Sequence record: MW630116.1
Length of the DNA: 64,000 nucleotides
From: Escherichia phage vB_EcoM-ZQ3
Strand: one strand, 5' to 3'
The position numbers and the translations under genes were made by a program. The notes beneath the pieces are model-generated. The model ran no database searches, had not been told where the DNA came from, and saw nothing but the letters and a program-made list of their open reading frames with translations. Positions within the stretch are counted from its first letter, which is position 1. Each line of letters starts with the position of its first letter. Positions 19,974-60,247 of the stretch are shown one piece after another.

Positions 19974-20003
19974 GTTTACATTATAGATGGACTATAGTAT
20001 AGT
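19974..20003 (+). promoter_or_regulatory. T4-type early promoter
   Basis: GTTTAC, 18-nt spacer, TATAGT, then conserved cctatcaa leader. Confidence 0.45.
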
Positions 20004-20034
20004 AGTCTCCTATCAAATCAACTAAGGAGTTAAA

Positions 20035-20328
20035 ATGAAAAAGTTATCATTGGCAGCAATCTTACTTGCAGTATCATGTGCACCGGCTCCAGTTACAGCA
20101 GGTTATGATAAAGACCTATGTGAGTGGTCAATGACTGCAAATCAAGAAGATGTTGAACAACAAATCTTCTCTGATATCATGAACATCACTAAACGAGACC
20201 GTCCTAATATGGTTAATAAAGTTGTTGAACAACTTAAGTCTGGTGGTATCATGCAGTACAATTATGTTTTGTATTGTGACCCTAATTTCGATAACAAAGA
20301 TATCGTAACCGAAATCACAGGTGAATAA
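20035..20328 (+). CDS. sp: Spackle (periplasmic superinfection-exclusion protein, lysozyme inhibitor)
   Basis: 97 aa with signal peptide; GYDKDLCEWSMTA...QYNYVLYCD matches recalled T4 Sp. Confidence 0.88.
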   Translation: MKKLSLAAILLAVSCAPAPVTAGYDKDLCEWSMTANQEDVEQQIFSDIMNITKRDRPNMVNKVVEQLKSGGIMQYNYVLYCDPNFDNKDIVTEITGE

Positions 20329-20329
20329 T

Positions 20330-20980
20330 ATGATTTATTATATGCACAAAAATGCGCCATTTAAATATGGTAAATTTCCTAATGCACAATGTTATAATAT
20401 AACGCCGAATGAAAATAATAACGGATACCATATTGGTGTAATTTTTGTAATTGTTAAAGATAACGAAATCGTTGCCTGGGCAGATTTTAAAGGTACAACA
20501 TATGATGTTAATCCGGTGCCTTTCACATATTACAATATAATGGATTTGGCATATGATTATAATTGGTTTAATCATGACGCGTTGGCTCATATTGAAGGTG
20601 TAGGATTTGACATCTCATATTCTAGCTATTCATTATGCCCTATGAGCCGAGCTCACGGTAAAGATGCATCATATCTTTCATTTCGGAAACGTGTAAACTT
20701 CAAACGTAGTACAGAGTATGTCGGTGGACTCTTTGTTAAAGATAATAAAATAACCCGTATTAGTTATCCTTTAAGTGTAGGTCAAAAAGATGTTGTTGTT
20801 GATTTAGACTTAACCGAAAATAACATTAATCATATTGCTTCTGTATATTTTGATATTGATGAAAAAATTGTAGTGTGTGGATACGAATTACCGCCTGAAG
20901 AAAAGGCTGAAACAATTGAAGTCGAATTAGAAATTTCTGTTGATGACCAAATATTTAATGCATTTATGAATCGAGGTTAA
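20330..20980 (+). CDS. hypothetical protein in a low-GC segment
   Basis: 216 aa from ATG 20330; AT-rich coding sequence. Confidence 0.6.
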   Translation: MIYYMHKNAPFKYGKFPNAQCYNITPNENNNGYHIGVIFVIVKDNEIVAWADFKGTTYDVNPVPFTYYNIMDLAYDYNWFNHDALAHIEGVGFDISYSSYSLCPMSRAHGKDASYLSFRKRVNFKRSTEYVGGLFVKDNKITRISYPLSVGQKDVVVDLDLTENNINHIASVYFDIDEKIVVCGYELPPEEKAETIEVELEISVDDQIFNAFMNRG

Positions 20981-20981
20981 A

Positions 20982-21179
20982 ATGAATACTGCAATTTGCA
21001 CTGGTTCTAAAATTAGTGTTTTTACAAGTTTTGAAGATTATGAAGTTGTTTCAAAACACCAATACCATATTAGCGTAAAAGCTAATGATGGTGTAATTTG
21101 GAATATTCCACAGTATGAAGGCACTACATATGAAGTCACAGATATAAATGGTGACAAAGCAATCTTTGTAATTGATTAA
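20982..21179 (+). CDS. hypothetical small protein
   Basis: 65 aa; RBS gagg. Confidence 0.5.
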   Translation: MNTAICTGSKISVFTSFEDYEVVSKHQYHISVKANDGVIWNIPQYEGTTYEVTDINGDKAIFVID

Positions 21180-21198
21180 ATATACTCAGGAGGTACCT

Positions 21199-21666
21199 AT
21201 GGGTATTATTAACACTGCAATAGATTCTGTTTATGCATATAAGTTTATTCGACTAATGCAAAAACCTTTTACCGAATGGAAAGCATACGAAGCCAAAATC
21301 ATCGATGACCGTGGAAGTGTTCTTAAACGTCCTTCTACTCCAGAAGAGAAAGCTGCGTATACACCTTTTCATGCTTCAGTTCGTTCAATGAAGCGAATGA
21401 TGAGCACTGTTCCAGGTCTTAATGGAATGGCCTCAATGATGTCTGCCTGGAGTGCTGTAGCTTCACGCTATAACATTACGGAAGAACAACAGAAAGAAAT
21501 ATTTAAAGAACTCCCTTTATTTGAGGATATGGTTGCTGGTGATTCAGGTGGCAGCCCTCAAGCTATTGCATCAGGAACAACTACAGGTGCAGTAGTAAAT
21601 AAAGGTCCAGAACAAATTCCTTCCAAGAAAAGAAAGCGAATTAAAGTAAATATTAATAAGTTGTGA
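21199..21666 (+). CDS. hypothetical protein
   Basis: ATG 21199 preceded by aggagg; basic C-terminal tail. Confidence 0.6.
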   Translation: MGIINTAIDSVYAYKFIRLMQKPFTEWKAYEAKIIDDRGSVLKRPSTPEEKAAYTPFHASVRSMKRMMSTVPGLNGMASMMSAWSAVASRYNITEEQQKEIFKELPLFEDMVAGDSGGSPQAIASGTTTGAVVNKGPEQIPSKKRKRIKVNINKL

Positions 21667-21707
21667 TAAGATGGCCCCTTATTAATTTAAGGCCTCTGGA
21701 GAATACT

Positions 21708-22730
21708 ATGGCTGAATGGATAGATAATGAATTTGCTTATCGCGCGTTTTCTCACCTACCTCGTTTTAGACAAATCAATAATTCAAGCACATTTAAATTA
21801 ACATTTCGATGTCCAGTTTGTGGCGACTCCCAGACAGATGCAATGAAAGCTCGCGGATGGTATTATGGCGGTACTCCTGGTAATGTACATTGTTATAATT
21901 GCCAATACCACAATACAATTTCCGGATACTTAAAAGAGTATGATGAAGAGCTTTATCGCGAATATCTAATGGAAGTTCGTAAAGAAAAAGCTAGAATGGA
22001 ACCAAAGATTGAAAAGGTTCCTGAAGCTAAGCCGGAGCCAGAGAAAAAGACTATAAATTCTTTGCCGTCTTGTTCTCGCCTGGACAAGCTGCCTGAAGAG
22101 CATCCTATTGTGAAATATGTTAAGTCTAGATGCATTCCTAAAGAATCATGGAATAGACTATGGTTCACATTAGAATGGCCTAAATTGGTCAACAAGATTC
22201 AACCTGGTACGTATAAGAAAGAGATTCCAGAACCACGTTTGGTGATTCCTATTTTTAATAAAGACGGGAAGGCTGAGTCATTCCAAGGACGTGCACTTCG
22301 TAAAGATGCTCCTCAGAAATATATCACTATTAAAGCGTTTGAGTCTGCAACAAAAATTTATGGTGTTGAACGTGTTAAGGAAGGAGACGTCTGGGTAATG
22401 GAAGGCCCTATTGATAGTTTATTCATACCCAATGCAATCGCTATTACAGGCGGCTCAATAGATTTAGATGTGGTACCATTTAAAGAACGTCGGGTATGGG
22501 TAATGGATAATGAACCTAGGCACCCGGATACTATAGCTCGCATGAAGCGATTAGTTGACGCAGGCGAACGTGTCATGTTCTGGGACCGAGCTCCATGGAG
22601 ATCAAAGGATGTGAATGATATGGTAATGAAAGAAAATGCAACACCACAAGAAATTTTAGAATATATGAAACAGAATATTTCAAGTGGGTTGCATGCTAAA
22701 ATGAGATTATCTCGTTATTCTAAGATTTAA
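21708..22730 (+). CDS. 61: DNA primase gp61
   Basis: zinc ribbon CPVCGDS...HCYNC; toprim MEGPIDS and VMDNE; ATG 21708 with ggag RBS. Confidence 0.9.
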   Translation: MAEWIDNEFAYRAFSHLPRFRQINNSSTFKLTFRCPVCGDSQTDAMKARGWYYGGTPGNVHCYNCQYHNTISGYLKEYDEELYREYLMEVRKEKARMEPKIEKVPEAKPEPEKKTINSLPSCSRLDKLPEEHPIVKYVKSRCIPKESWNRLWFTLEWPKLVNKIQPGTYKKEIPEPRLVIPIFNKDGKAESFQGRALRKDAPQKYITIKAFESATKIYGVERVKEGDVWVMEGPIDSLFIPNAIAITGGSIDLDVVPFKERRVWVMDNEPRHPDTIARMKRLVDAGERVMFWDRAPWRSKDVNDMVMKENATPQEILEYMKQNISSGLHAKMRLSRYSKI

Positions 22731-22924
22731 ACAAGCCCTATAATAGCAAAGGCCAAATCAACTACAGTATCCAATGGAACAGAAGGAACAATAACACCAT
22801 GGGCAACTAACAATGGCGCAATCACGAAGTTCCACGAAATAATGCCACCTACAACTATTGCAGCGATAGCAGTTTTCTTTTTATTGCCTTTAATAGCGTT
22901 GATTAACGATGGAAGTTTAAACAT
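22727..22924 (-). CDS. small membrane protein (65 aa) encoded antisense to the flanking early genes
   Basis: strong RBS aaggag 5 nt upstream of ATG on the - strand; hydrophobic two-segment sequence. Confidence 0.55.
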   Translation of the reverse strand: MFKLPSLINAIKGNKKKTAIAAIVVGGIISWNFVIAPLLVAHGVIVPSVPLDTVVDLAFAIIGLV

Positions 22925-23014
22925 AATATCTCCTTAGTTACCTTATTATTTATTACGCTTTATAAAATTAATGTTAGAATTAACTTCTCTTATACTGAAT
23001 TGAAAGGAAAAATA

Positions 23015-23536: not shown

Positions 23537-23542
23537 TTAAGT

Positions 23543-23550
23543 TATAAATA
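23543..23550 (+). promoter_or_regulatory. late promoter TATAAATA upstream of soc
   Basis: exact TATAAATA about 32 nt before the soc ATG. Confidence 0.6.
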
Positions 23551-23581
23551 CACCTGTAATTAAACAACAAAGGAGTTAATT

Positions 23582-23818: not shown

Positions 23819-23826
23819 ATAATTTA

Positions 23827-23855
23827 AGGAATCCTTCGGGATTCCTTTTTTTTTG
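23827..23855 (+). terminator. rho-independent terminator
   Basis: aggaatcc-ttcg-ggattcct followed by T9. Confidence 0.8.
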
Positions 23856-23863
23856 TTTCTACA

Positions 23864-23893
23864 GTTTACAACCACTAAAAACTGTGTTAAGAT
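23864..23893 (+). promoter_or_regulatory. T4-type early promoter
   Basis: GTTTAC, 18-nt spacer, TAAGAT. Confidence 0.45.
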
Positions 23894-23921
23894 ATTCTTA
23901 CTTACTCAAGAGGAGAACAAT

Positions 23922-25184: not shown

Positions 25185-25345
25185 AAGAGAAATTTAAAGA
25201 GAAATTCTTACTAGAAATCAAGGAAAAAGACTTTGAGACATGGTATCGAATGGTGAAAGGGTTGACATTGCTTTTTAAAGCATCCTTATTCATGTTAGAA
25301 CAACCTGGTCCTGATGGACCTTTAGTAGGAAAACTTAAAAAGTAG
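25181..25345 (+). CDS. possible 54-aa protein
   Basis: ATGA overlap; below track size cutoff. Confidence 0.35.
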   Translation: MKEKFKEKFLLEIKEKDFETWYRMVKGLTLLFKASLFMLEQPGPDGPLVGKLKK

Positions 25346-25373
25346 TTTACATTCCCTCCTCTCGTGTTATGAT
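25345..25373 (+). promoter_or_regulatory. T4-type early promoter
   Basis: GTTTAC, 17-nt spacer, TATGAT. Confidence 0.45.
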
Positions 25374-25474
25374 AGGCTTATCTTTAAATGGAGGTCTATC
25401 ATGACATGTCAATCTGAACTTCAAGAACGCGAATACCTAACAAAATCATTCATTTGAAAATGTTGAATTTTTAG

Positions 25475-25506
25475 TGTACAAACTCTACTGACGATGATAC
25501 TATACT
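25475..25506 (+). promoter_or_regulatory. T4-type early promoter
   Basis: GTGTAC then TACTAT/TATACT region. Confidence 0.4.
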
Positions 25507-25531
25507 TTTATCAACCACAGGAGAAACCTAA

Positions 25532-26089
25532 ATGTTTATGCCGTATAATGAATGTGAAATTGAAGAAATGGTTCGTCGTGCTCAAAACCCCGAATATCAA
25601 GATGTATTGCAGTACGAAATTGATAGTCAATTCAGCGACATTGAACAAAGTGTACTGTGGCAGTGTATGGAAAACAAGCCTGATAGCATCCAACAAGATT
25701 TAAGTGCAATTGTTCGTAGAAATTGGACGTCTTCTGTTCCTGAGACAATGTATCGTGGAATCTCTAAGAAAACTATGGCCACACTCGATGATAAAGGCAT
25801 TGGTAGTATTATTAAATTTGACAGAGTAATGAGCTTCAGTCCGGTGTTTGGTGTAGCACGTAACTTCGCTTCATATAATTTTTATGGAACATTTAATATG
25901 TTCTGCATCAAAGATGCACCATCTTGCGAGTTCAATGGAGCTTTCCCTGAAGCGACAAGACGGTCTAATGCTAGACTTATATCTGACGAATGTGAATTTA
26001 TGCTCCCTATAGGGACTACACTGCGTGTAGATTCTATTATTCAGGATGGACGTTATACAATCTGGAATCTGTCTATTGTCAGTTACTGA
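25532..26089 (+). CDS. ADP-ribosyltransferase (ModA/ModB family)
   Basis: R-S-E triad: MYRGIS, MSFSPV (S-x-S), DECEFMLP (E-x-E); position between soc and srd. Confidence 0.8.
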   Translation: MFMPYNECEIEEMVRRAQNPEYQDVLQYEIDSQFSDIEQSVLWQCMENKPDSIQQDLSAIVRRNWTSSVPETMYRGISKKTMATLDDKGIGSIIKFDRVMSFSPVFGVARNFASYNFYGTFNMFCIKDAPSCEFNGAFPEATRRSNARLISDECEFMLPIGTTLRVDSIIQDGRYTIWNLSIVSY

Positions 26090-26163: not shown

Positions 26164-26192
26164 GTGTACACTACCTGAGGGCATGATATTAT
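26164..26192 (+). promoter_or_regulatory. T4-type early promoter
   Basis: GTGTAC, 17-nt spacer, TATTAT. Confidence 0.45.
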
Positions 26193-26242
26193 AAGCTTAT
26201 CAGCTAAATGACCTTAACGTCCGTAAGACAGAGGAAAATATT

Positions 26243-29305: not shown

Positions 29306-29335
29306 GTTTACAACCAAGGATGGTTGGAGTATAAT
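29306..29335 (+). promoter_or_regulatory. T4-type early promoter
   Basis: GTTTAC, 18-nt spacer, TATAAT. Confidence 0.5.
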
Positions 29336-29366
29336 CTTTCTATCTTAACCAAACAGGAAAAACATT

Positions 29367-29861: not shown

Positions 29862-29864
29862 TGT

Positions 29865-29893
29865 TTTACATCCAAGGATGGATGGAGTATAAT
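29865..29893 (+). promoter_or_regulatory. T4-type early promoter (near-duplicate of 29306-29335)
   Basis: TTTTAC, 17-nt spacer, TATAAT; spacer ccaaggatggatggag nearly identical to the upstream copy. Confidence 0.5.
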
Positions 29894-29922
29894 GAATTCA
29901 ATTTAACAAAGAGAGAAAAATT

Positions 29923-30811: not shown

Positions 30812-30840
30812 GTTTACTTCTCCTCCGGTTTTGATATTAT
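30812..30840 (+). promoter_or_regulatory. T4-type early promoter
   Basis: GTTTAC, 17-nt spacer, TATTAT. Confidence 0.45.
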
Positions 30841-30866
30841 AACCATATCAACCAGAGGAGAATAAT

Positions 30867-31391
30867 ATGTTAGTTTACCGCGTAGAACGTAGTTTTTGTA
30901 CTCAACGTGAATCATTACCAGGAATTGCTATCGAAGATGGTAAAGCCGTCAGAATTTGGGAAACCTCTTGGAATAAAGAACCTCGTTCGCCGTATGGTTG
31001 GTCGGGCACCGACAACTCTGAAGAAACATGGGAGTTCCTTGATAAGCATGGAATACTCTCAGGTAACTTCTACCATCACGGCGACAACTATAATGTCCCT
31101 AATCGTCCTACAGTAAATGAAGACAAACTCCTTGAACAAAATATCTTAAGATACTATAGAATTGAGCACACATTTGAATTGAGTGAAGATTGGGCCCAAG
31201 GGTTCTATTTTGGATTTGAAAGTGTTGACGCGGTTTATGCATGGTTTGATGACCAGGTGGATGTTGAACTCTTGAAAGCTAAAGGATACTACATCGCGGT
31301 CTATGAAGCACCTGATTTCATCCTCGGAAGTTGTCAATTAATGTTTAGACGTTCATTGGCAGAACAAGTTGATTTTATTTTGCTAAAATGA
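30867..31391 (+). CDS. hypothetical protein
   Basis: 174 aa with RBS gaggag. Confidence 0.65.
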   Translation: MLVYRVERSFCTQRESLPGIAIEDGKAVRIWETSWNKEPRSPYGWSGTDNSEETWEFLDKHGILSGNFYHHGDNYNVPNRPTVNEDKLLEQNILRYYRIEHTFELSEDWAQGFYFGFESVDAVYAWFDDQVDVELLKAKGYYIAVYEAPDFILGSCQLMFRRSLAEQVDFILLK

Positions 31392-31392
31392 T

Positions 31393-31422
31393 GTACAACA
31401 ACTATGGTCTATGATACTATAG
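31393..31422 (+). promoter_or_regulatory. T4-type early promoter
   Basis: TGTACA then gatactatagacctatcaaaac leader. Confidence 0.4.
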
Positions 31423-31448
31423 ACCTATCAAAACAAGAGGAGAATATT

Positions 31449-32270: not shown

Positions 32271-32696
32271 ATGGCTTTTAAAGGTTTTGAAGTTGGTAAG
32301 AAATATCGTATTATCAAAGGACAGGAAGATAATTTCTTGAGAATTCTTAATACGACTGGTAAACGTCTTAATACTAATCTGCATACTACTTTATTGTCCA
32401 AAGATTTTATTGTGGAAGAGATGATTGGTTACGGCGTTTCTGTGATTGCTGTAGAAGCCGTAGGCGATTATGGCCGAACTATTCATAGTATGCAAGGTGA
32501 TATTCTGCTTTATGGTGCAGAATTTAAATTCTTTGAAGAAGTTCCGGAACCAGATACAGCTGTCGATTTCAAAAAAGGCTCTATAGAATTTGTTGATGGT
32601 TCGGTGATCGTATCAGGCGATGTGGTCATTACAGTTAAAAGTGAACAAGGGCGTTTGGCTGCAATTGATGCACTTCAGAAAATTAAATTTAAATAA
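32271..32696 (+). CDS. hypothetical early protein (141 aa, same size and position as T4 goF)
   Basis: synteny immediately upstream of gene 39. Confidence 0.65.
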   Translation: MAFKGFEVGKKYRIIKGQEDNFLRILNTTGKRLNTNLHTTLLSKDFIVEEMIGYGVSVIAVEAVGDYGRTIHSMQGDILLYGAEFKFFEEVPEPDTAVDFKKGSIEFVDGSVIVSGDVVITVKSEQGRLAAIDALQKIKFK

Positions 32697-32714
32697 GGGC
32701 TTCGGCCCTTTTTG
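32697..32714 (+). terminator. rho-independent terminator
   Basis: gggc-ttcg-gccc followed by T5. Confidence 0.75.
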
Positions 32715-32737: not shown

Positions 32738-32759
32738 ACCTTCATAACGAGGAGACAAC

Positions 32760-34577
32760 ATGATTAAAAATGAAATTAAGGTATTGTCAGATGTAGAACA
32801 TATTAAGAAACGCAGTGGCATGTATATTGGTTCTTCGGCCAAAGAAGCCCACGAGCGTTTTTTGTTTGGTAAATATCAACAAGTTGAATATGTTCCTGGT
32901 CTGGTTAAATTAATCGATGAGATTATTGACAACTCGGTTGATGAAGCTATTCGTACATCATTTAAGTTTGCAAATAAAATTGATGTGCAAATTAAAAATA
33001 ATCAAGTTTCGGTGGAAGATAACGGACGTGGTATTCCTCAAGGTTTAGTTACCGACCAAACAGGTGAACAAATTCCTGGGCCTGTAGCAGCCTGGACTAT
33101 TCCAAAGGCTGGTGGTAACTTTGGCGATGACTCTGAACGCAAGACTGGTGGTATGAACGGCGTCGGGAGTAGTTTAACTAATATCTTCTCTACGTTGTTT
33201 ACAGGCATCACGTCAGATGGCGAAAATGAAATCACTGTTAACTGTTCAAACGGAATGGAAAACAAATCATGGTCTTCTAAGAAATCTAAAGGTAAAGGCA
33301 CTAAAGTAATCTTCACTCCTGATTTCACTTCATTTGAAGAGCATAATTTATCTCAAATTTATTTAGATATTACTTTAGACCGACTTCAAACATTGGCAGT
33401 CGTTTATCCTGATATCAAGTTCACATTTAATGGTAAAAAGGTTGATGGTAATTTTAAACGATTTGCTAAACAATTTGGTGAAGATAACATCATTCAAGAA
33501 AATGATAAAGTCTCTATAGCATTCACAACATCACCAGATGGCTTCCGTCATTTAACTTATGTGAATAACATCCATACTAAAAATGGTGGTCATCATGTTG
33601 AATGTGTAATGGATGATATCTGCGAACATCTTTTGCCCGGCATTAAAAAGAAATATAAGGGTATTGAAGTCACTAAAGCTCGTGTTAAAGAATGCCTCAC
33701 AATGTTGATGTTTATTAGAGACATGAGCAACATGCGTTTTGATTCTCAGACTAAAGAACGTTTAACGTCAACGTATGGTGATATTCGTAATCATATCCAA
33801 TTAGATGCTAAGAAAATTGCTCAGGCACTTCTTAAAAACGAAGCCTTGATTATGCCTATTGTTGAAGCAGCATTAGCTCGTAAATTGGCGGCAGAAAAGG
33901 CTGCAGAAACTAAAGCAGCTAAAAAGGCAACTAAAGCTAAGGTTCATAAGCATATTAAAGCTAACCAATGTGGTAAAGATGCAGATACGACATTGTTTTT
34001 AACAGAAGGTGATTCGGCAATTGGTTATCTCATTGATGTTCGTGACCGTGAACTACACGGCGGATTCCCATTACGTGGTAAGGTGATGAATAGCTGGGGT
34101 ATGTCATATGCTGATATGATGAAGAACAAAGAGCTCTTTGATATCTGTGCTATCACAGGTCTTATTCTTGGTGAAAAGGCAGAGAATACAAACTATCGTA
34201 ATATTGCAATTATGACCGATGCCGATCATGACGGTCTTGGAAGTATTTATCCGGCTTTGCTTGCTTTCTTTAGTAATTGGCCTGAATTGTTTGAACAAGG
34301 ACGTATTCGCTTTGTTAAAACGCCTGTAATTATTGCACAAATTGGCAAAACTCAAAAATGGTTTTATACTGTAGCTGAGTATGAAGAAGCTAAAGATACA
34401 CTGCCTAAGCATAGTATTCGATACATCAAGGGATTAGGCTCCCTTGAAAAGTCAGAATATCGTGAAATGATTCAGAACCCTGTGTACGACGTAGTTAAAC
34501 TTCCTGAAAATTGGAAAGAACTCTTTGAAATGTTGATGGGTGATGATTCAGAACTTCGTAAAGAATGGATGTCCTAA
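32760..34577 (+). CDS. 39: DNA topoisomerase II large subunit, GyrB-like ATPase; uninterrupted (covers both T4 gp39 and gp60 segments)
   Basis: 605 aa; GHKL ATPase N-terminus; toprim region; single continuous ORF. Confidence 0.92.
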   Translation: MIKNEIKVLSDVEHIKKRSGMYIGSSAKEAHERFLFGKYQQVEYVPGLVKLIDEIIDNSVDEAIRTSFKFANKIDVQIKNNQVSVEDNGRGIPQGLVTDQTGEQIPGPVAAWTIPKAGGNFGDDSERKTGGMNGVGSSLTNIFSTLFTGITSDGENEITVNCSNGMENKSWSSKKSKGKGTKVIFTPDFTSFEEHNLSQIYLDITLDRLQTLAVVYPDIKFTFNGKKVDGNFKRFAKQFGEDNIIQENDKVSIAFTTSPDGFRHLTYVNNIHTKNGGHHVECVMDDICEHLLPGIKKKYKGIEVTKARVKECLTMLMFIRDMSNMRFDSQTKERLTSTYGDIRNHIQLDAKKIAQALLKNEALIMPIVEAALARKLAAEKAAETKAAKKATKAKVHKHIKANQCGKDADTTLFLTEGDSAIGYLIDVRDRELHGGFPLRGKVMNSWGMSYADMMKNKELFDICAITGLILGEKAENTNYRNIAIMTDADHDGLGSIYPALLAFFSNWPELFEQGRIRFVKTPVIIAQIGKTQKWFYTVAEYEEAKDTLPKHSIRYIKGLGSLEKSEYREMIQNPVYDVVKLPENWKELFEMLMGDDSELRKEWMS

Positions 34578-39201: not shown

Positions 39202-39226
39202 GGGGACTTCGGTCCCCTTTTTTTCT
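39202..39226 (+). terminator. rho-independent terminator
   Basis: ggggac-ttcg-gtcccc followed by T9. Confidence 0.8.
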
Positions 39227-40031: not shown

Positions 40032-40062
40032 GTTTACAACTAAGTAGGTCTATGATATAGTA
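40032..40062 (+). promoter_or_regulatory. T4-type early promoter
   Basis: GTTTAC then tatgatatagtagtcctatc. Confidence 0.4.
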
Positions 40063-40087
40063 GTCCTATCTAAAAGAGGATAACATC

Positions 40088-40544: not shown

Positions 40545-40574
40545 GTTTACAACAAGGTAGGATTATGGTATAGT
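40545..40574 (+). promoter_or_regulatory. T4-type early promoter
   Basis: GTTTAC, 18-nt spacer, TATAGT. Confidence 0.45.
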
Positions 40575-40602
40575 AGTCCTACTGAAACATGAGGAACACA
40601 AA

Positions 40603-40805: not shown

Positions 40806-40835
40806 TTGTACAAACTCTTGAGAGCAGAGTATAAT
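40806..40835 (+). promoter_or_regulatory. T4-type early promoter with palindrome around the -10
   Basis: TTGTAC, 18-nt spacer, TATAAT; gagagca...tgctctc inverted repeat. Confidence 0.45.
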
Positions 40836-40879
40836 GCTCTCATGGATTACAAAAACATTAATCAATTGAGGAAATTAGC

Positions 40880-41528: not shown

Positions 41529-41665
41529 TTAAGAAAATCTTAGCAGGAGCCTTCGGGCTCTTGTTTTTGCTTACGGTTCTGTACTACGGTGTGATGTTTG
41601 GGCTAATCCAAGTAGTGCTTTTCATTTCAGATGTTATAATGGTTATTCGTTCATTAATATGGTGA
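41525..41665 (+). CDS. possible 46-aa membrane peptide
   Basis: hydrophobic; ends 5 nt before the gene 52 ATG. Confidence 0.4.
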   Translation: MIKKILAGAFGLLFLLTVLYYGVMFGLIQVVLFISDVIMVIRSLIW

Positions 41666-42995: not shown

Positions 42996-43071
42996 GTGCC
43001 ATAGCCTTAGGATTTCTCGGTGCAATAGCTGCACTAGTGATTTGGCTGTATTGGTTGGACAAACATGATTA

Positions 43072-43092
43072 GGGAGCTTCGGCTCCCTTTTG
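43072..43092 (+). terminator. rho-independent terminator
   Basis: gggagc-ttcg-gctccc followed by TTTTG. Confidence 0.7.
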
Positions 43093-43113
43093 TGCATTTT
43101 TCTCACAAAACAG

Positions 43114-43141
43114 TTTACACGTGCTTCAAACATGATATTAT
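43114..43141 (+). promoter_or_regulatory. T4-type early promoter
   Basis: GTTTAC ... TATTAT; leader nearly identical to 43435-43500. Confidence 0.5.
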
Positions 43142-43180
43142 AGACCTATCAAAACAAAACAACCAAATTGGAGAAATAAA

Positions 43181-43396
43181 ATGTCTAAAATGAAATTAAC
43201 CCAAAACACAACTACTCGTTTTGGTAAAGTTAAACCTGGTATGAATGCTCCCCGTAAAGCACTTGTTGAAGAATTAAATTTCTTAGAAGTTGAAATCAAT
43301 TCTTTAGTGGTTCGCGGTTCAAATGGACATCATTTAGAAAAGCTTCGTTCTAAAAAGGCAAAACTTATTGGCCTTATTAAAGAAATGAGTTTGTAA
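43181..43396 (+). CDS. hypothetical small basic protein
   Basis: 71 aa; shares promoter, leader and MSK start with motA. Confidence 0.6.
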   Translation: MSKMKLTQNTTTRFGKVKPGMNAPRKALVEELNFLEVEINSLVVRGSNGHHLEKLRSKKAKLIGLIKEMSL

Positions 43397-43434: not shown

Positions 43435-43463
43435 GTTTACTTTTGCTTCAAACATGATATTAT
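43435..43463 (+). promoter_or_regulatory. T4-type early promoter of motA
   Basis: GTTTAC ... TATTAT then tagacctatcaaaac leader. Confidence 0.5.
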
Positions 43464-43500
43464 AGACCTATCAAAACAAATACTAATTTGGAGAAATAAA

Positions 43501-44133
43501 ATGTCTAAAGTTACTTACATCATCAAAGCTTCTGAAAACGTTCTGAATGAAAAAACTGCTGCAATAATGGTTTATATCATTAAGAACAACTTCACCACTG
43601 CTGCCAATGTCCGTGAAGCTCTGGAAGCTGAATACAATGCATCAGTTGTTAACTCTAACATTGGTGTATTGATTAAGAAAGGTTTAGTCGAAAAATCTGG
43701 TGATGGACTTATAGCAACAGGCGAAGCAATGGATATTATCCAAAAAGCTGCAGACCTCTTTGCCCAAGAAAATGCTCCAGAACTTCTTCAGAAACGTAAC
43801 ACTAGAAAAGCACGTGGAGTTACTCCCGAAATGCATGAATTAGCAAACTTTGTTTTTGAAAATATTAAAGATAAAGTTGAAGTTAAAGAAATTGGTGAAA
43901 ACCGTAGTAACTTGGAAGTTCGATTTGCAAAACGAGTTCTAGGTATTCGTCAGATCGAAATTCGTCGAGATGGTTGTCTTAGAATATTTGCATACAACAT
44001 GTCAGAAACTGAATCAAAGCTGTTTACTTCTCTTGAAAATGATGTTAAGATTAAGATCGGTGGTAAATATACTTACATTGACTTCCCTAATGTGTCCAAA
44101 GAAATCATTACCCTTGTAACTAACGTACTGTGA
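43501..44133 (+). CDS. motA: middle-transcription activator MotA
   Basis: 210 aa; MSKVTYIIKAS...NSNIGVLIKKGLVEKSGDGL matches recalled T4 MotA. Confidence 0.9.
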   Translation: MSKVTYIIKASENVLNEKTAAIMVYIIKNNFTTAANVREALEAEYNASVVNSNIGVLIKKGLVEKSGDGLIATGEAMDIIQKAADLFAQENAPELLQKRNTRKARGVTPEMHELANFVFENIKDKVEVKEIGENRSNLEVRFAKRVLGIRQIEIRRDGCLRIFAYNMSETESKLFTSLENDVKIKIGGKYTYIDFPNVSKEIITLVTNVL

Positions 44134-45812: not shown

Positions 45813-45963
45813 TCTTCAGAACGTAGTAGAGGCCGAACGTGAGCGTGAGGCTTTAGTCTATAATGAACTATTAGTTCCGTTCTTGGCCTTACACTCGTAC
45901 GAACAGGAAGACTACACCAATTACGTTAAAAGCGTAGAAAAAGCCATTTACAATCAACACTGA
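45802..45963 (+). CDS. possible 53-aa protein
   Basis: ATGA overlap with the previous ORF. Confidence 0.4.
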   Translation: MSHNLQNVVEAEREREALVYNELLVPFLALHSYEQEDYTNYVKSVEKAIYNQH

Positions 45964-46009
45964 TAATGGTACTATATCCATATCAACTAAGTGGAATGAA
46001 TAAAACGTT

Positions 46010-47530: not shown

Positions 47531-50500
47531 TTATGCTAAACGAACGATATAGTTAAAAGCAATGTTTTTAACCGTGTTTTCTGTATTACCTGTACTATTT
47601 ACAGTGATAGTATGACCATGCGAACCAATAGCTACCGTGTGAGTATGAGCACCTATACCAACCGAATGGCTATGAGCACCAATACCAACGGTGTGGGCAT
47701 GGTTACCGGTCGTGTTGGTTACACCAGACCAGTTTCTTGAAGCGTTGAAGTTGACAGGGATACCATTAACAAAGTTATTACCAGTATACCCTCTAGAGCC
47801 TGCCTGACCACCGAGGTAGAATGCACCACTTGCTGTGTAGAAGCTACTGTTGTCACTTCTAAAGTAACCAAATGAACCAGAGATTTCCATATTACCTCTG
47901 TTGTGGTTATGGTTGCCAGTAGTGTTGGTTGTCTTAGTACCATAGTCGAAGCTACTTGTTGTCTTAGTACCATAATCAAAACTTGACGTGGTTTTAGTAC
48001 CCAAGTCAGTACTCGAAGCAGATGCGCTATGGTTATGAGCCTTAACACCGTCTGCTTCTGTACTTAATACAGCACGCCCGGATGGTTTACCTTTAATAGT
48101 TTGACCACGCATATCCGGAATAGTACCGGTAGGATATGCTATAGCGAGCTTAGGATAAGCTGAAGTATCAAAAGTCTGACCTTCCATTATGGCATAACCT
48201 TCAGGAGGTGTATCAGTAGGCCAAGGAATCGGAGCTCCAATAGGATAACTTGAAACAATATCAGTTTTAAGTGATTCAATCGTACTGTTTAAGTTAGCAA
48301 AATTACCAGAACCACCCGTAATATTGCCGTCAGTTCCTAAAGTTGTGTTGCCTACAATAATTTTACCAGGTAAGCGGAAGTCACCGGTGCGACGGAATTC
48401 CCAACTTATATCGGTGCCACCCGTACTAGTGCCTTGGTGGTAATGAACACGGAAATCTCCTTGATTAATTAATGTCCCAATAGAATAAGTGCTATCACCT
48501 TGCACATAACGCTGTTTAACAATAGGAATATATTCAGAAGTAGCAGTACGCTCTATATTCATATAAATCGGAGCTCTGACGTTTACGTCGTTCTGAGATG
48601 CAAATGAACCGCACCCTGCTGGACGAACGCCGTCAGAAGCCTGAATATCTATATAAGCGTTTTGCCCTAATTGCATATTATAATTAGGACTTATGCGAGA
48701 ATTAGAAGTCAAAACAACAAGTTTACTATCATTATCAACAGTAACCATATTGCCGCCTAACCCATCATCACCTAATGTAACAGAATGACGCATTTGCACC
48801 ATACCATTATGAAGAGCAATACTTAACGGGCGAAGATTACCTATTTCGCCATTTTCTCCTTGGTCTTTAAGAGTAGGAATAATGTGCAATGCTGTTTCTG
48901 AACGACGGAAAATAGCACCATATTCAGCGTTCCAAATTCTTAGTGCGTTTGCTGTTCCGCCAAATTTAGCTTGTCCATTTACAGTCAATCCATTATTTGC
49001 AACTAAGCTTGATTCGGTTGTAATAGAACCAGAAGCAACAATACTACCTGAAGTTAATAAACCGCCATTAACTCGAAATTGAATAGGTCCGACAGTAGAA
49101 CCCGATCCAGGAGCAACTCGCTGAGAATAAAAATGGTAACCTTGCCCATCTGATACTTCAAAAACTGTTTCACGACTACGATCACCAGATGCGTTAAATG
49201 AATTACCCCACGCTTTAACAGTTACATAGCTTTTATTCTGCCCAGCACGAGTACCGCCTTCCCACAAAATTTGCTTAGTGCCATCAACTGTAGTAGTTGG
49301 AGCGAATGTTAGCCCAGCAGTAGAATTATTAGCTGCTAAATATACACCATTATATATTGAAAGCTGCTTAACAGATGTAATACCGCCATCAGCATAAAAC
49401 ATCACATTATTTGCACCGGTTACCAATTTCAAAATACCCGGGTTAATTTCCATACCTTGTTGGGTATTGATATTCATCTGACCTGTACCGCGGAAATAGT
49501 GGTTCATTTTACCGCCAGCATTGTACCCGATATGGGTTTGACCGTCTCCAGCATTGTTATTATCAGCTTGTGTTTGAACTGATAAAAGAGCGGCGTTGGT
49601 TCCAGGCATAATCCAAGTTGTGCCTTGGTCCTCGGAACGACCAAATATACCTTTACGAGTACTACGGAAACTGTCAGGAGTAATAGAAGCGACAGATTTA
49701 CCTGAACCAACTAAATCATAAACACCGGTTTTTTTGTATGATAAACCCGTCCCGTTATCGCCTAGAGCTAAATAAGCACCGAATCCTAAAGCGCCACCGT
49801 TACCGTAATCGCTTGACGGATATCCTTCAGTCACGGTCCCAATGGCTACACTATTGCGGACGATCATTCGGCCGTCATTACGAATACCATATAGTTTAAA
49901 TAATGGTGTATTACCAGTCCACCAAGAAACTTCATCAGCCAGGCCAGTTTGAGCTGTACAAATTTCATGGTAAATAGTTCCGCCCGATTTAGCACGAACT
50001 TTACGAAGATAGTTTACACCATTTGTTTCTCCGGTTCCAGGATAAACATAGTTAACCAAAGATTGAGAATCATATTGCCCAAAGGCTTTAGAATCATGAT
50101 TAATTAAATTAACACTAATAGATGGTGTACTAATAGAAGTTAAAGCAGTTAATTTGCGTGCCTGGAAAATACCGCCATCAGTAGAAATGAAATGAAATTC
50201 TGAATTTTGAGCCCCTGCTGCGGTTCCTTGGCGAACACGCATTGTAATTACGCCTTCATTTTCAGACTGCGGTTTTGAATATAAAACACCTCTCTCTGAT
50301 CCATCTGTATTTTCAAACCAAAGATGGGCATTGGAAGTATCATTTGTTGCTCTTGTGTAAAATGACCCTCGCATAGATCTAAAAACTAAGGCGGATACGC
50401 CTTCAGTAGAACCAATAGGTCCATTTACGGTCATTCCGCCGGTTTGTACATAATCGCCGTTTAATTTCAAAAGACCATTGATAGTTACATTTCCATCAAC

Positions 50501-56419: not shown

Positions 56420-56449
56420 TCGTTTTTCCTTTATTGTTTCAATAATACT

Positions 56450-56457
56450 TATTTATA
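56450..56457 (-). promoter_or_regulatory. late promoter TATAAATA for gene 34
   Basis: + strand tatttata, 31 nt upstream of the gene 34 start. Confidence 0.55.
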
Positions 56458-56460
56458 CCA

Positions 56461-56490
56461 GTTTACGCTTTCAAATGAGTGTGTTACTAT
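56461..56490 (+). promoter_or_regulatory. T4-type early promoter for rnh
   Basis: GTTTAC, 18-nt spacer, TACTAT. Confidence 0.45.
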
Positions 56491-56522
56491 AGACAAGTTG
56501 ACTAACTGAACAAGAGGTTCAT

Positions 56523-57440: not shown

Positions 57441-57447
57441 GGTAAAC

Positions 57448-57717
57448 ATGGCTAAGAAAGAAGCAGTTGAATTTAATCAAGATGTGCATGGTGAAGAACT
57501 GGCTAAACTAGTCAAGGAAGCTTCCGATAACAAACTTAAAATTTCTGGTTATAATGAACTGATTAAAGACATTCGTACTCGTGCTAAAGAAGAGCTTGGT
57601 GTCGATGGAAAAATGTTTAATCGTTTGTTAGCTCTTTATCATAAAGACGCTCGTGACCAATTTGAAGCTGAAAACGAAGAGGTAGTCGAGCTTTATGACA
57701 CAGTTTTCACTAAGTGA
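57448..57717 (+). CDS. dsbA: dsDNA-binding protein DsbA
   Basis: 89 aa from ATG 57448 (RBS gagg), size matches T4 DsbA. Confidence 0.7.
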   Translation: MAKKEAVEFNQDVHGEELAKLVKEASDNKLKISGYNELIKDIRTRAKEELGVDGKMFNRLLALYHKDARDQFEAENEEVVELYDTVFTK

Positions 57718-58033
57718 TATTAAACCGGTTGATGAGGCCGGTTTATCTGAACAAGAATTAGCAGTAAAACACGATAAAGATGATATCGCTAAATTGCTTG
57801 ACCGACAAGAAAACGGATTCATTATCGAATCCATGGTTGAACAATTTGGTATGTCTTATTTAGAAGCAACAACTGCTTTCTTGGAAGAAAATTCTATTCC
57901 AGAAACACAATTTGCTAAATTTATTCCTACAGGAATTGTTGAAAAAATTACAAGCGAAGCAATTGACGAAAACATGCTTCGCCCATCAGTTGCTCGTGGT
58001 GAAAAAACTAATACGTTAGATTTCTTATTATGA
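57695..58033 (+). CDS. 33: late transcription co-activator gp33
   Basis: 112 aa, size and synteny. Confidence 0.8.
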   Translation: MTQFSLSDIKPVDEAGLSEQELAVKHDKDDIAKLLDRQENGFIIESMVEQFGMSYLEATTAFLEENSIPETQFAKFIPTGIVEKITSEAIDENMLRPSVARGEKTNTLDFLL

Positions 58034-58683
58034 TTAAAATACGCATGCCTCCTGATGGAGAACGTTATATTAACGGAAAATCGGTATACAAACTATACTT
58101 GATGTGCAAACAACATTTTAATGGTCGGTATGACGTAATCAAATATAACTGGTGCATGCGTGTTTCGGATAATGCGTATCAAAAACGCCGAGATAAATAT
58201 TTCTTTGAAAAGCTAGCAGAGAAATATAAATTGAAGGAACTCACCTTGATATTCATCAGTAACTTAGTTGCTAACCAAGATGCATGGATTGGTGAGATAT
58301 CAGACGCTGATGCATTAGTTTTCTATAGGGAATATATTGGACGTCTCAAACAAGCCAAGGAGACGTTTGCTGAAGATGTACGTAACATCTACTATTTCAG
58401 TAAGAAAGTTGAAGTTAGCGCGCTTCAAGAGATATTTGATTATAATAACAACGTTCAGTCGAGCTACATATTCAAATTGCTACAAAGCAATATAATTTCA
58501 TTTGAGACTTTCTTATTGTTGGACTCATTTTTGAATATTATAGATAAGCACGACGAACTTACTGACAATTTAGTCTGGCAAAATTATTCTACCAAATTAA
58601 AGGCATATCGAAAAATACTCCAAATCGATGGAAATGCTGCTAAGAAATTGTTCATAGAAACAATCAAATCATGTAAGTATTAA
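58030..58683 (+). CDS. 59: helicase loader gp59
   Basis: 217 aa, size and synteny. Confidence 0.88.
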   Translation: MIKIRMPPDGERYINGKSVYKLYLMCKQHFNGRYDVIKYNWCMRVSDNAYQKRRDKYFFEKLAEKYKLKELTLIFISNLVANQDAWIGEISDADALVFYREYIGRLKQAKETFAEDVRNIYYFSKKVEVSALQEIFDYNNNVQSSYIFKLLQSNIISFETFLLLDSFLNIIDKHDELTDNLVWQNYSTKLKAYRKILQIDGNAAKKLFIETIKSCKY

Positions 58684-58707
58684 GCTTTATTTCTTGTGTG
58701 TTAAAAT
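58681..58707 (+). promoter_or_regulatory. putative MotA-dependent middle promoter for gene 32
   Basis: taaGCTTTA, 12-nt gap, TAAAAT; a TATAAATA at 58713-58720 may be an additional late promoter. Confidence 0.4.
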
Positions 58708-58730
58708 TACTTTATAAATAAATCATACCA

Positions 58731-58797
58731 GCTACGAGGTATAAGTGTCGTAGCAACCAACTGTAAAATTTAATTAATCTAAATAAAGGCAAATAAA
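58731..58797 (+). promoter_or_regulatory. gene 32 autoregulatory leader (structured element plus A/U-rich unstructured tract)
   Basis: gctacga...tcgtagc stem followed by aatttaattaatctaaataaaggcaaataaa before the ATG. Confidence 0.5.
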
Positions 58798-59700
58798 ATG
58801 TTTAAACGTAAAAGTACCGCAGACCTCGCAGCTCAGATGGCTAAACTGAATGGTAACAAAGGTTTCTCTTCAGAAGATAAAGGTGAATGGAAGCTGAAAC
58901 TCGATGCGTCCGGTAATGGTCAAGCGGTAATTCGTTTCCTGCCGGCAAAAACAGATGACGCACTTCCGTTTGCAATTCTTGTTAACCACGGGTTCAAGAA
59001 AAATGGTAAATGGTATATTGAAACCTGTTCATCTACACACGGCGATTACGACTCTTGTCCGGTATGTCAGTACATTAGTAAAAATGACCTGTACAATACA
59101 AACAAAACAGAATATTCTCAACTGAAACGTAAAACTTCTTATTGGGCTAATATCCTGGTTGTTAAAGACCCACAAGCTCCAGATAATGAAGGTAAAGTAT
59201 TCAAATACCGTTTCGGTAAAAAGATTTGGGACAAAATCAATGCAATGATTGCAGTCGATACTGAAATGGGTGAAACTCCTGTTGATGTAACTTGCCCATG
59301 GGAAGGTGCTAACTTTGTGCTGAAAGTTAAACAGGTTTCTGGTTTCAGTAACTATGACGAATCTAAATTCCTGAATCAATCTGCGATTCCAAACATTGAT
59401 GATGAATCTTTCCAGAAAGAATTGTTCGAACAAATGGTTGACCTTTCTGAAATGACTTCTAAAGATAAGTTCAAATCGTTTGAAGAATTGAATACTAAAT
59501 TTACTCAAGTTCTTGGTACTGCCGTTCTTGGTGGTGCAGCAGCTGCCGCAGCTTCTGTTGCAGATAAAGTTGCTTCTGACCTCGACGATTTTGATAAAGA
59601 CATGGAAGCCTTTAGTTCTGCAAAAACTGAAGATGACTTCATGAGCTCTACCTCATCCTCTGATGATGGCGACCTCGATGACCTGTTAGCTGGTCTATAA
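58798..59700 (+). CDS. 32: ssDNA-binding protein gp32
   Basis: 300 aa; [36 protein letters not shown] matches recalled T4 gp32; acidic C-terminus. Confidence 0.95.
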
Positions 59701-59706
59701 TAAATT

Positions 59707-59729
59707 GGGAGACTTCGGTCTCCCTTTTG
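59707..59729 (+). terminator. rho-independent terminator
   Basis: gggagac-ttcg-gtctccc followed by TTTT. Confidence 0.8.
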
Positions 59730-59756
59730 AGTATCTGTAAATTGCCAAAAAAGATG

Positions 59757-59784
59757 TTTACTTCTTCCCTAGATGTGATATTAT
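59757..59784 (+). promoter_or_regulatory. T4-type early promoter
   Basis: GTTTAC ... TATTAT then tagttctatcaac leader. Confidence 0.45.
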
Positions 59785-59813
59785 AGTTCTATCAACAACA
59801 TGAGGAAATCAAA

Positions 59814-60218
59814 ATGGAAATCGGAAAATCTTATATCATTAACCCTTTGTTTAAAGACGACTTTGTTCAAGAAGCACCACACAATAACGCTAAGATGTTA
59901 AAATTGATTGAACTCCACGGGCCTAGTTTTGTTGTAAACGGAATGGAACCTGATTATGATGGCGATACGCCAAACGTAGTAAGTGTAACTATGGAAGATG
60001 GTACTGTATGTTCTGCCGGTGGTGAAATTGAAACTTATTTTGAGATTTATCCTGACGAGTTCAAATACTTTATTGAGTACTTTACTGAGGTAACTTTAGA
60101 AAAGCCTCAACCTACTAACGAAGGTATAACTTTAGGTGTAACAAAAATCCATTGTATCGTAGATGAAACCAACGTCGACGAAATCATCAAACTTTTGCAA
60201 AAAACTTTTAAAAAGTAG
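59814..60218 (+). CDS. hypothetical protein
   Basis: 134 aa with RBS gagga. Confidence 0.6.
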   Translation: MEIGKSYIINPLFKDDFVQEAPHNNAKMLKLIELHGPSFVVNGMEPDYDGDTPNVVSVTMEDGTVCSAGGEIETYFEIYPDEFKYFIEYFTEVTLEKPQPTNEGITLGVTKIHCIVDETNVDEIIKLLQKTFKK

Positions 60219-60247
60219 TGTACAATCAGATAGGGTTATGTTATAGT
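60218..60247 (+). promoter_or_regulatory. T4-type early promoter
   Basis: GTGTAC, 18-nt spacer, TATAGT. Confidence 0.45.

Follow-up and report, generated by a model that had tools for sequence, protein, structure and literature searches.

Probable T-even early promoters with a consensus start-site box and stem-loop cassettes in Escherichia phage vB_EcoM-ZQ3

We analysed 64,000 nt of DNA from Escherichia phage vB_EcoM-ZQ3 (sequence record MW630116.1; this whole stretch is called the window), in which a promoter and leader cassette recurs upstream of early genes. The sites are probably sigma-70-dependent early promoters of the T-even phages (Pe); the box conserved downstream of their -10 hexamers is probably a class consensus around the transcription start, and the hairpins found with them probably form cassettes of the early promoter/stem-loop (PeSL) type. 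The sites have the architecture, the strand and the gene context of such promoters, and they are accompanied by terminator hairpins and by embedded stems that covary from promoter to promoter. The box is locked to the -10 hexamer, straddles the predicted start and is common to three T-even genera, and it is absent from middle, late and RB49-type promoters. The reading that suits it best is not that of a processing signal but that of the section of the T-even early promoter consensus which covers the start site and the initially transcribed bases. Host RNA polymerase would use the Pe sites immediately after infection.

Promoters were located with a position matrix made of the UP/-35 block and the TGn/-10 block only, which is blind to anything downstream of the -10 hexamer. 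A matrix was needed because the strict pattern GT[TG]TAC-N16-19-TA[TG]A[AG]T recovered merely 5 sites. Twenty sites in the window scored at least 22, all on the + strand and none on the - strand. The next score was 13.1, for a site upstream of asiA, followed by 9.2. With the asiA site the total is 21 early promoters (referred to by the first position of their entries in Table 1), 18 of them within 19974-60247 and three (18658, 19233 and 19663) just 5' of that range. An original prediction, made from the letters of the sequence, had claimed at least 15 such cassettes; it was correct in naming them early promoter/leader cassettes and in pointing out terminator hairpins. The pattern GTTTAC-N17/18-TAnnnT matched 18 times in the window against 1.65 expected, a number reached in 0 of 100 shuffles.

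The -35 hexamer is GTTTAC at 15 of the 21 promoters and deviates from it at one position at the remaining six; the spacer is 18 nt long at 15 promoters and 17 nt at 6. The -10 sequence of the original prediction, TATAAT or TATAGT, does not hold in that form: the hexamers are mostly TATTAT (6) and TACTAT (5), followed by TATAGT (4), TATGAT (2), TAAGAT (2) and TATAAT, found at just 2 promoters. An extended -10 element, TG at -15/-14, is present in 17 of 21 promoters, and the UP region is A-rich, with an excess of A at 4, 6 and 8 nt ahead of the -35 hexamer. A Shine-Dalgarno (SD) sequence and a start codon lie downstream of 20 of the 21 promoters, 20-44 nt away, and the predicted leaders are mostly 20-26 nt long with a mode of 22. 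The GAGGA ribosome-binding site that had been assigned to the cassette occurs in 11 of these 20 leaders and not in the remainder. Among the genes behind the promoters are imm, sp, modB, srd, a motB-like gene, motA, asiA and rnh. In the spacing of -35 and -10, in the TGn and UP elements and in early-gene context and direction, the sites agree with Pe.

When the 21 promoters were aligned on the -10 hexamer, a consensus appeared directly after it: A (16), G (10), n, C (15), C/T, T (18), A (18), T (15), C (14), followed by an A-rich, G-poor stretch and then by the SD. Information content after the -10 was highest at +4, +6, +7 and +9. TATC stands at offset 6 from the -10 in 13 of the 21 promoters and at offset 8 in one more, compared with a background of 2.9% at any + strand position (binomial 3e-17); with five obviously paralogous promoters dropped, it is found in 11 of 16 (binomial 5e-14). 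Leaders with an SD and an ATG contained TATC in 12 of 17 cases when a promoter was present versus 10 of 47 when it was not (Fisher 6e-4). The original prediction had named enrichment over shuffled sequence as the check on its downstream box. The composite TAnnnT-N3-YYTATC gave 16 matches versus 4.1 expected (0 of 100 shuffles), and the box is therefore real. Its enrichment and its tie to the -10 thus stand; its uniformity had been overstated, as the exact string CCTATCAAA occurs 5 times in the window and the box is absent from 7 of the 21 promoters. Searched alone, exactly or with one mismatch, CCTATCAAA showed no enrichment (18 matches versus 20 expected at one mismatch). The box is informative solely when anchored to the -10.

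The box starts 3 nt past the -10 hexamer, and its best-conserved position is a C (15 of 21). Its offset from the -10 is fixed at 6 in 13 of 14 cases, while the ATG lies anywhere from 21 to 45 nt away; in the long leaders (26164, 43113 and 43435) it remains beside the promoter and not beside the SD. An A is found 7 nt past the -10 in 18 of the 21 promoters, and six mapped T4 middle-promoter starts lie 7-8 nt past the -10 in the T4 sequence (starts from PMC2988021, Table 1). For these reasons the A of TATC is likely to be +1, and the box would read C-3 Y-2 T-1 A+1 T+2 C+3 A A C. Positions -3 to -1, including the best-conserved C, would then lie upstream of the start and would not be transcribed. 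From +1 to +10 the predicted transcript contains 9% G.

The box had been proposed as a processing or translation signal, and this proposal found no support, given that the box is locked to the -10 and its best base probably untranscribed. In addition, leaders that begin at the promoter folded without any sign of structure (mean z +0.6), and a scan of the whole window against Rfam gave zero family matches at the gathering score. The known processing signal of T4 early mRNA is the RegB site, GGAG/U in an intergenic region or in the SD, cleaved by RegB with S1 (PMC3014915). The box (CCTATCAA) has no GGAG; in 9 of 20 leaders the SD contains one, 10-20 nt downstream of the box. Two other candidates can be compared with the box. 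A sigma-dependent pause element was rejected, as a -10-like hexamer ends in T and TATCAA does not; and the NAD-capping consensus needs a purine at -1, where the window box has T.

A role at the RNA level, close to the proposed one, would give the 5'-terminal AUCAAC(UA) the function of a single-stranded signal, either for the loading of ribosomes or S1 or for stability or decay that depends on the 5' end. Such a role would suit leaders that are short and unstructured, with their first 8 nt unpaired at a mean probability of 0.8, and a transcribed part that is rich in A, C and U and poor in G; the consensus also extends into the leader (CTATCAACTAcTGA) in T4, in JS98 and in the window. We consider it unlikely nevertheless, because -3 C, -2 and -1 would never enter the RNA, because the box of the long leaders tracks the -10 and not the SD, and because Rfam has no match in the window. 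Comparison by eye with the 3' end of 16S rRNA also gave no obvious complementarity.

We favour an action of the box at the level of DNA and RNA polymerase, within the polymerase footprint. The consensus A-6 G-5 n C-3 Y-2 T-1 A+1 T C A A C would fix initiation at the A 7 nt past the -10, with a pyrimidine (T) at -1. The G-poor initial transcript would favour rapid escape from a very tightly bound promoter, and the unstructured 5' end would aid ribosome loading.

We compared the window with T4 (Tequatrovirus; 87 kb of sequence), JS98 (Dhakavirus) and RB49 (Krischvirus). The same box is found in early promoters of T4 and JS98, for example TACTAT-acaaCTATCAACTACTGATAC and TACTAT-agaCCTATCAAC. When window, T4 and JS98 were pooled, TATC was at +6 in 27 of 50 promoters and A at +7 in 39 of 50. 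In IMG/VR contigs of 155-175 kb, the size of a T4-like genome, an exact composite pattern recurs in many copies per genome. RB49 early promoters are TTGACA-N17-TATAAT and lack the box, which is likewise absent from MotA-box candidates, from the six mapped T4 middle promoters and from TATAAATA late promoters. Between orthologous promoters of three genera, identity is 92% in the -35, 86% in the -10, 49% in the UP region, 44% in the 13 nt after the -10, 36% further downstream and 33% in the spacer. In view of this class and genus distribution, and of orthologues that differ in its presence, the box is a class consensus of T-even early promoters and not an invariant element. No explicit description or functional dissection of TATCAAC at +1 in T4 early promoters was found in the literature searched.

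At least five T4 early promoters have a longer common leader start past the box, CTATCAACT(AC)TGATAC(A/G)GA, in the segments L002, L003 and L004 (e.g. at 6630, and at 17674 and 21087 of L004). Short forms of it, TCAACTAA and ACTAACTGA, occur in the asiA and rnh leaders of the window and in JS98.

Some of these observations weigh against the reading of the box as part of the promoter consensus. Besides the seven promoters that lack it, the box is gained and lost among orthologous promoters across genera. Together with 44% identity after the -10 versus 33% in the spacer, this means that selection is quantitative at best, or that the box was spread by recombination between promoters. The position of +1 rests on prediction for the window phage. 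General preferences of RNA polymerase are matched no further than Y-1/R+1, and the box is without the G+2 of the core recognition element. Finally, if the box merely optimised sigma-70 initiation, middle promoters might share it, and they do not.

Another reading makes the box an operator: a phage early or middle protein would bind the start-site box and shut off early promoters minutes after infection. Such a box would be specific to the early class, missing from middle and late promoters and overlapping +1, as observed, and the mechanism of early shut-off is incompletely understood, neither AsiA nor ModA accounting for it (PMC3014915, PMC2988021). RB49-type phages do not have the box. RB49 is not known to have motA either. 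We regard an operator as highly improbable all the same: the box by itself is not dyad-symmetric, one third of the early promoters do without it, it is not enriched away from promoters (the 18 matches versus 20 expected given above), no candidate binding protein was identified, and the idea is pure inference.

Hairpins of two kinds, upstream of the promoters and embedded in them, accompany the Pe sites. The first kind comprises seven + strand hairpins with a GC-rich stem, a UUCG loop closed by C-G and a T-rich tail in all. The tail has at least 2 T at 18632, about 3 at 32695, 41542 and 43071, and is longer at 23826 (seven), 39202 and 59707. By stem, C(UUCG)G loop and 3' U tract, the seven are predicted to be intrinsic terminators. 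An early -35 follows 4-31 nt after the end of four of them (18658, 23864, 43113 and 59756). The three terminator/promoter pairs cited originally are present, with coordinates correct to within 1 nt. Since only 4 of the 21 promoters follow a UUCG terminator, the statement that the cassette usually does so is incorrect.

Candidates for middle promoters with a MotA box (TGCTTtA-N11-13-TAnnnT) were noted at 32713, 41560, 9781, 14960 and other positions, two of them directly after UUCG terminators. Several have CCT or CCC right before the predicted start, without TATCAA.

For the second kind of hairpin, the sequence between the -35 and a point 14 nt beyond the -10 was folded, and shuffles of the spacer alone served as the null. 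Of 41 promoters from the window, T4 and JS98, 14 gave significantly stable hairpins. Their 5' arm is the spacer, and their 3' arm consists of the final -10 bases, the discriminator and the box. The set was enlarged with the same box-blind matrix to 281 unique promoters, 158 of them non-redundant at 80% identity; 63 of the 158 had z < -2. A strand-neutral score that counts Watson-Crick pairs only found a helix in 50 of 158 (31.6%) versus 4.1% in spacer shuffles. Mismatches inside the helices were G.T in 13 cases and A.C in 0 (p 2e-4), an asymmetry that points to sense-strand RNA and disfavours a DNA cruciform.

The stem sequences vary between promoters and covary (GGTCTATG/TATAGACC, GGTAGGATTAT/GTAGTCCTACT, GATAGGGTTAT/GTAGTCCTATC and GTTGACAAGATTAT/GTAATCTTGTCAAC). 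In 22 hairpin promoters of one register there were 53 double-changed cells versus 16.4 in shuffles (0 of 500), and the covariation score was 0.49 versus 0.24 in shuffles and 0.10-0.20 in slid registers; these figures are inflated, as the set had been picked for folding. The test was consequently repeated on promoters unselected for folding. In all 106 promoters with an 18-nt spacer, the paired fraction was 0.524 versus 0.480 in column shuffles (z 5.6), other registers giving 0.32-0.45. For the window, T4 and JS98 alone, again unselected, it was 0.515 versus 0.466 (0 of 500).

The window contains eight embedded hairpins with z of -2.3 or below, and about 9 of its 21 promoters have neither kind of hairpin. 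Embedded hairpins occur at 7 of 11 window promoters with an upstream open reading frame (ORF) whose stop is 13 nt or less from the -35, compared with 0 of 7 promoters with a larger upstream gap, including the four with UUCG terminators (Fisher 0.010). At promoters 31391 and 60218 the stop codon of the upstream ORF overlaps the -35. No U tract follows the embedded stems. A stem-loop next to or within the early promoter, as in PeSLs, is present. In the weak-scoring promoter-like site at 40806 the -10 lies in the loop of a GC-rich hairpin; this architecture recurs upstream of motB-like genes in T4 (GGGACC...GGTCCC; L002 ~7215) and JS98 (GAGAGCC...GGCTCT; L006 ~6698), with different stem sequences.

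These hairpins would act on transcripts that arrive from upstream, by termination, attenuation or 3'-end protection, and the embedded stem-loop could form solely in read-through transcripts. We tentatively raise the possibility, about which we have more doubt than confidence, that some one third of T-even early promoters lie inside an RNA hairpin and that the promoter defines two mRNA isoforms with different fates. Read-through transcripts from the upstream gene would fold the hairpin immediately 5' of the following SD; those initiated at the promoter would be without the 5' arm and unstructured. The fates in question would be termination or attenuation, a protected 3' end for the upstream cistron, or translation of the cistron downstream. 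If true, this would extend the logic of T4 gene e, gene 49 and soc to the whole early region.

The hairpins and the near-identity of some cassettes also suggest that the box might not be selected itself. It could be kept alike by concerted evolution through PeSL shuffling, or be constrained as the 3' arm of an embedded stem-loop serving as the end mark of the upstream transcript. Near-identical cassettes indeed stand before unrelated genes, 43113 and 43435 being alike from the spacer to the third codon. Three JS98 promoters are identical from -16 to +7 and have different spacers; orthologous promoters differ in whether they have the box; and crossovers of RB49 minicircles fall between the -10 and the SD/ATG (PMC2839356). 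Of the insertions and deletions (indels) between the window and its relative HX01, two have their junctions in promoter UP regions, at 19233 and at 25474. As to the hairpin, TAGG in the consensus spacer is the complement of CCTA in the consensus box, and the two covary. We find this explanation improbable on balance. Unrelated spacers between near-identical flanks look more like constraint on the flanks than like recent copying, box and hairpin presence are not associated (16 of 41 versus 20 of 60), and the box has been kept in three genera between which neutral sites are saturated.

One such pair of cassettes deserves a separate description. The motA cassette (43435-43510) is duplicated before the preceding 71-aa ORF (43113-43190), with near-identical sequence from the spacer through the leader to codons ATG TCT AAA and a 2-nt indel in the leader.

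Table 1. Predicted early promoters, promoter-like sites and UUCG-loop hairpins in the window. Promoter sites are from the box-blind matrix; +1 positions and leaders are predicted.
Feature	Position	Strand	-35 and -10	Start-site box	Start codon (gene)	Hairpin or remark
C(UUCG)G-loop terminator-like hairpin	18632..18653	+				AAAGGAGAC ttcg GTCTCCTTT; ends 4 nt before -35 at 18658
Early promoter and leader	18658..18716	+	GTTTAC 18658; TATGAT 18682-18687	Without box; predicted +1 A 18694	ATG 18717 (105-aa ORF MKTIDCK)	
Early promoter and leader	19233..19290	+	TACTAT 19257-19262	ctttCTATCAAC; +1 19269	ATG 19291 (imm.1-like)	
Early promoter and leader	19663..19720	+	TATTAT 19687-19692	Degenerate, aaacATAACAAA	ATG 19721 (imm)	
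Early promoter and leader	19974..20034	+	TATAGT 19998-20003	CCTATCAAA, displaced 2 nt (20009-20017)	ATG 20035 (sp)	Embedded hairpin 19983-20013, z -2.6
C(UUCG)G-loop intrinsic terminator	23826..23854	+				AAGGAATCC ttcg GGATTCCTT and T7 run; 16 nt before -35 at 23864
Early promoter and leader	23864..23921	+	TAAGAT 23888-23893	Without box (attcttactta)	ATG 23922 (mrh.2-like)	
Early promoter	25345..25400	+	TATGAT 25368-25373	aggCTTATC		Sole target is the 18-codon modA remnant
Early promoter and leader	25474..25531	+	GTGTAC; TACTAT 25498-25503	actTTTATCAAC	ATG 25532 (ADP-ribosyltransferase, modB-like)	
Early promoter, 44-nt leader	26164..26242	+	TATTAT 26187-26192	aagCTTATCAG, adjoining -10	ATG 26243 (srd)	
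Early promoter and leader	29306..29366	+	TATAAT 29330-29335	ctttCTATCTT	ATG 29367	Embedded hairpin 29317-29346, z -2.3
Early promoter and leader	29864..29922	+	TTTTAC; TATAAT 29888-29893	Without box	ATG 29923 (MotB-like)	Spacer paralogous to 29306 spacer
Early promoter and leader	30812..30866	+	TATTAT 30835-30840	aacCATATCAAC	ATG 30867	
Early promoter and leader	31391..31448	+	ATGTAC; TACTAT 31415-31420	agaCCTATCAAA	ATG 31449	Embedded hairpin GGTCTATG/TATAGACC 31406-31425, z -5.0
C(UUCG)G-loop terminator	32695..32710	+				Followed by MotA-box (TGCTTTA) middle-promoter candidate at 32713, not early promoter
C(UUCG)G-loop terminator	39202..39217	+				GGGGAC ttcg GTCCCC and T run; no early promoter within 60 nt
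Early promoter and leader	40032..40087	+	TATAGT 40056-40061	agtCCTATCTAA	ATG 40088	Embedded hairpin 40044-40069, z -2.6
Early promoter and leader	40545..40602	+	TATAGT 40569-40574	Variant, agtCCTACTG, paired with spacer GGTAGGA	ATG 40603	Embedded 11-bp hairpin 40556-40583, -13.6 kcal/mol, z -4.7
Weak-scoring promoter-like site	40806..40841	+	TTGTAC-N18-TATAAT			-10 in loop of GC-rich hairpin GAGAGC/GCTCTC
C(UUCG)G-loop terminator	41542..41565	+				Directly followed by tttGCTTAcg, by eye like MotA-box consensus TGCTTtA
C(UUCG)G-loop terminator	43071..43088	+				AGGGAGC ttcg GCTCCCT; 24 nt before -35 at 43113
Early promoter, 33-nt leader	43113..43180	+	TATTAT 43136-43141	agaCCTATCAAAAC	ATG 43181 (71-aa ORF)	
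Early promoter of motA, 31-nt leader	43435..43500	+	TATTAT 43458-43463	agaCCTATCAAAAC	ATG 43501	
Promoter-like site within motA, high-scoring, status uncertain	44022..44058	+	TAAGAT 44046-44051	Without box	Next ATG 44144, at 86 nt	
Early promoter of asiA	45946..46009	+	ATTTAC; TACTAT 45970-45975	atcCATATCAAC	ATG 46010	Embedded hairpin 45961-45985, z -2.3
Early promoter of rnh	56461..56522	+	TACTAT 56485-56490	Without TATC box (agacaagttgACTAACTGA)	ATG 56523	Orthologous to T4 rnh promoter
C(UUCG)G-loop terminator	59707..59724	+				GGGAGAC ttcg GTCTCCC and T run; 31 nt before -35 at 59756
Early promoter and leader	59756..59813	+	TATTAT 59779-59784	agtTCTATCAAC	ATG 59814	
Early promoter and leader	60218..60279	+	GTGTAC; TATAGT 60242-60247	agtCCTATCAAA	ATG 60280	Embedded 11-bp hairpin GATAGGGTTAT/GTAGTCCTATC 60229-60256, z -3.2

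The window comes from a T4-like coliphage of the genus Mosigvirus, with the + strand as its early-gene strand. Its segment 42000-46000 (4 kb) shares 99.3% identity with Escherichia phage HX01 (Straboviridae, Tevenvirinae, Mosigvirus, RB69 group) and is matched by hundreds of T4-like phages. Over 18.8-64 kb the identity to HX01 is 96-97%, with a few indels and a divergent tail-fibre segment. According to the HX01 annotation and our ORF calls, the classical T4 early and middle genes are on the + strand: dmd-region ORFs, imm, sp, primase, modB, srd, dda, dexA, a motB-like gene, gp39, rIIA/B, denB, ndd, gp52, motA, an arn-like gene, asiA, rnh, gp59, gp32, frd, td and nrdA. Late tail-fibre genes occupy the - strand at ~46.3-56.4 kb. 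Within them the distal tail-fibre/adhesin segment of gp37/gp38 (47707-50474, - strand) is 75-82% identical to HX01 or unalignable, compared with ~96% for the rest of the window. No early promoter was matched in window positions 1-18600, which fits replication genes served by middle promoters and read-through, if their content is assumed from T4 gene order.

The window differs from HX01 in several further places. The modA homologue of HX01 (582 bp) is deleted in the window, and an 18-codon remnant (MTCQSELQEREYLTKSFI*) remains behind promoter 25345 (window 25345-25532). The junction of the deletion falls at the short repeated sequence ACAAA(A)TC; ~30 nt beyond it the next early promoter begins. 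A small ORF present in HX01 and absent from the window lies between dmd and the imm.1-like gene and ends at the UP region of promoter 19233 (window 19205-19212; HX01 segment L001, 400-599). An HNH homing-endonuclease gene, likewise present in HX01 and absent from the window, follows terminator 32695 (window 32742-32816; L001, 14702-15436); it is one of the four indels outside the tail-fibre genes. Two of these four, a very small sample, have their junctions in promoter UP regions (19205-19212 and 25440, at promoters 19233 and 25474).

The finding is genuine, but nothing out of the ordinary in a T4-like genome. It is already known in kind and, in close relatives, also in instance, and neither the box nor the embedded stem-loops alter the picture of T4 gene expression. 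Its practical value is mainly in annotation: 21 early transcription units, and the terminators between them, can be placed on an unannotated T4-like genome, with an early promoter consensus that runs from about -55 to about +10. Of possible interest to specialists is a start-site box, CTATCAAC, that is specific to the early class and common to Tequatrovirus, Mosigvirus and Dhakavirus. The covariation and the G.U asymmetry are evidence that many T-even early promoters lie in an RNA stem-loop of the PeSL type, which bears on read-through between dense early units.

Known systems offer comparisons for each part of the cassette. A functional analogy, not a family relationship, links the box with T5 N25 and T7 A1, strong phage promoters at which effects of downstream or initial-transcribed sequences were reportedly described by Kammerer et al. 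in 1986 and Hsu et al. in 2006. There, too, a region from about -5 to +20, inside the polymerase footprint, is conserved within a class of strong early phage promoters. T7 A1 likewise starts CC-AUC. The sequence of the box is unlike the T5 and T7 downstream regions, and its tie to promoter escape is by analogy only.

CUUCGG hairpins are classical elements of T4 intercistronic regions, and Tuerk et al. are said to have described, in 1988, C(UUCG)G tetraloop hairpins of such regions and of intrinsic terminators. All seven hairpins of the window have the same GC-rich stem, C-G-closed UUCG loop and T-rich tail as those of T4. They differ from one another in what follows, an early promoter after four of the seven and a MotA-box middle-promoter candidate after two.

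T4 early promoters were reportedly the subject of studies by Liebig and Ruger (1989) and by Wilkens and Ruger (1994/1996). They combine UP, -35, TGn and -10 elements as 'uber' sigma-70 promoters with "additional regions of consensus" (Hinton 2010, PMC2988021). In RB69, 57 early promoters have been predicted, with C preferred at -3 to -1 (Nolan et al. 2006, PMC1524935). The promoters of the window share with those of T4 and RB69 the GTTTAC, the 17-18 nt spacer, TGn, TAnnnT, the A-rich UP region and a site 5' of early genes on the early strand. The RB69 preference for C at -3 to -1 matches the window, and T4 itself has the start-site box CTATCAAC. We see no essential difference between them.

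PeSLs are intergenic cassettes that combine a strong early promoter with a stem-loop and the SD/ATG (Arbiol et al. 2010, PMC2839356; Comeau et al. 2014, PMC4122927). In RB49 and phi1 the stem-loop lies mostly in the stretch that separates -35 from -10 or over the -10 and has G-T pairs; one of this type cut downstream lacZ expression as strongly as rrnB T1, and PeSLs were proposed as mediators of modular shuffling (PMC2839356, PMC4122927). In T4 and PST the stem-loops were placed just upstream of the promoter (PMC4122927), in contrast to the window, T4 and JS98 sequences analysed here, where many are embedded as in RB49 and phi1. The embedded stems of the window are not followed by a U tract. 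[quoted passage not shown]

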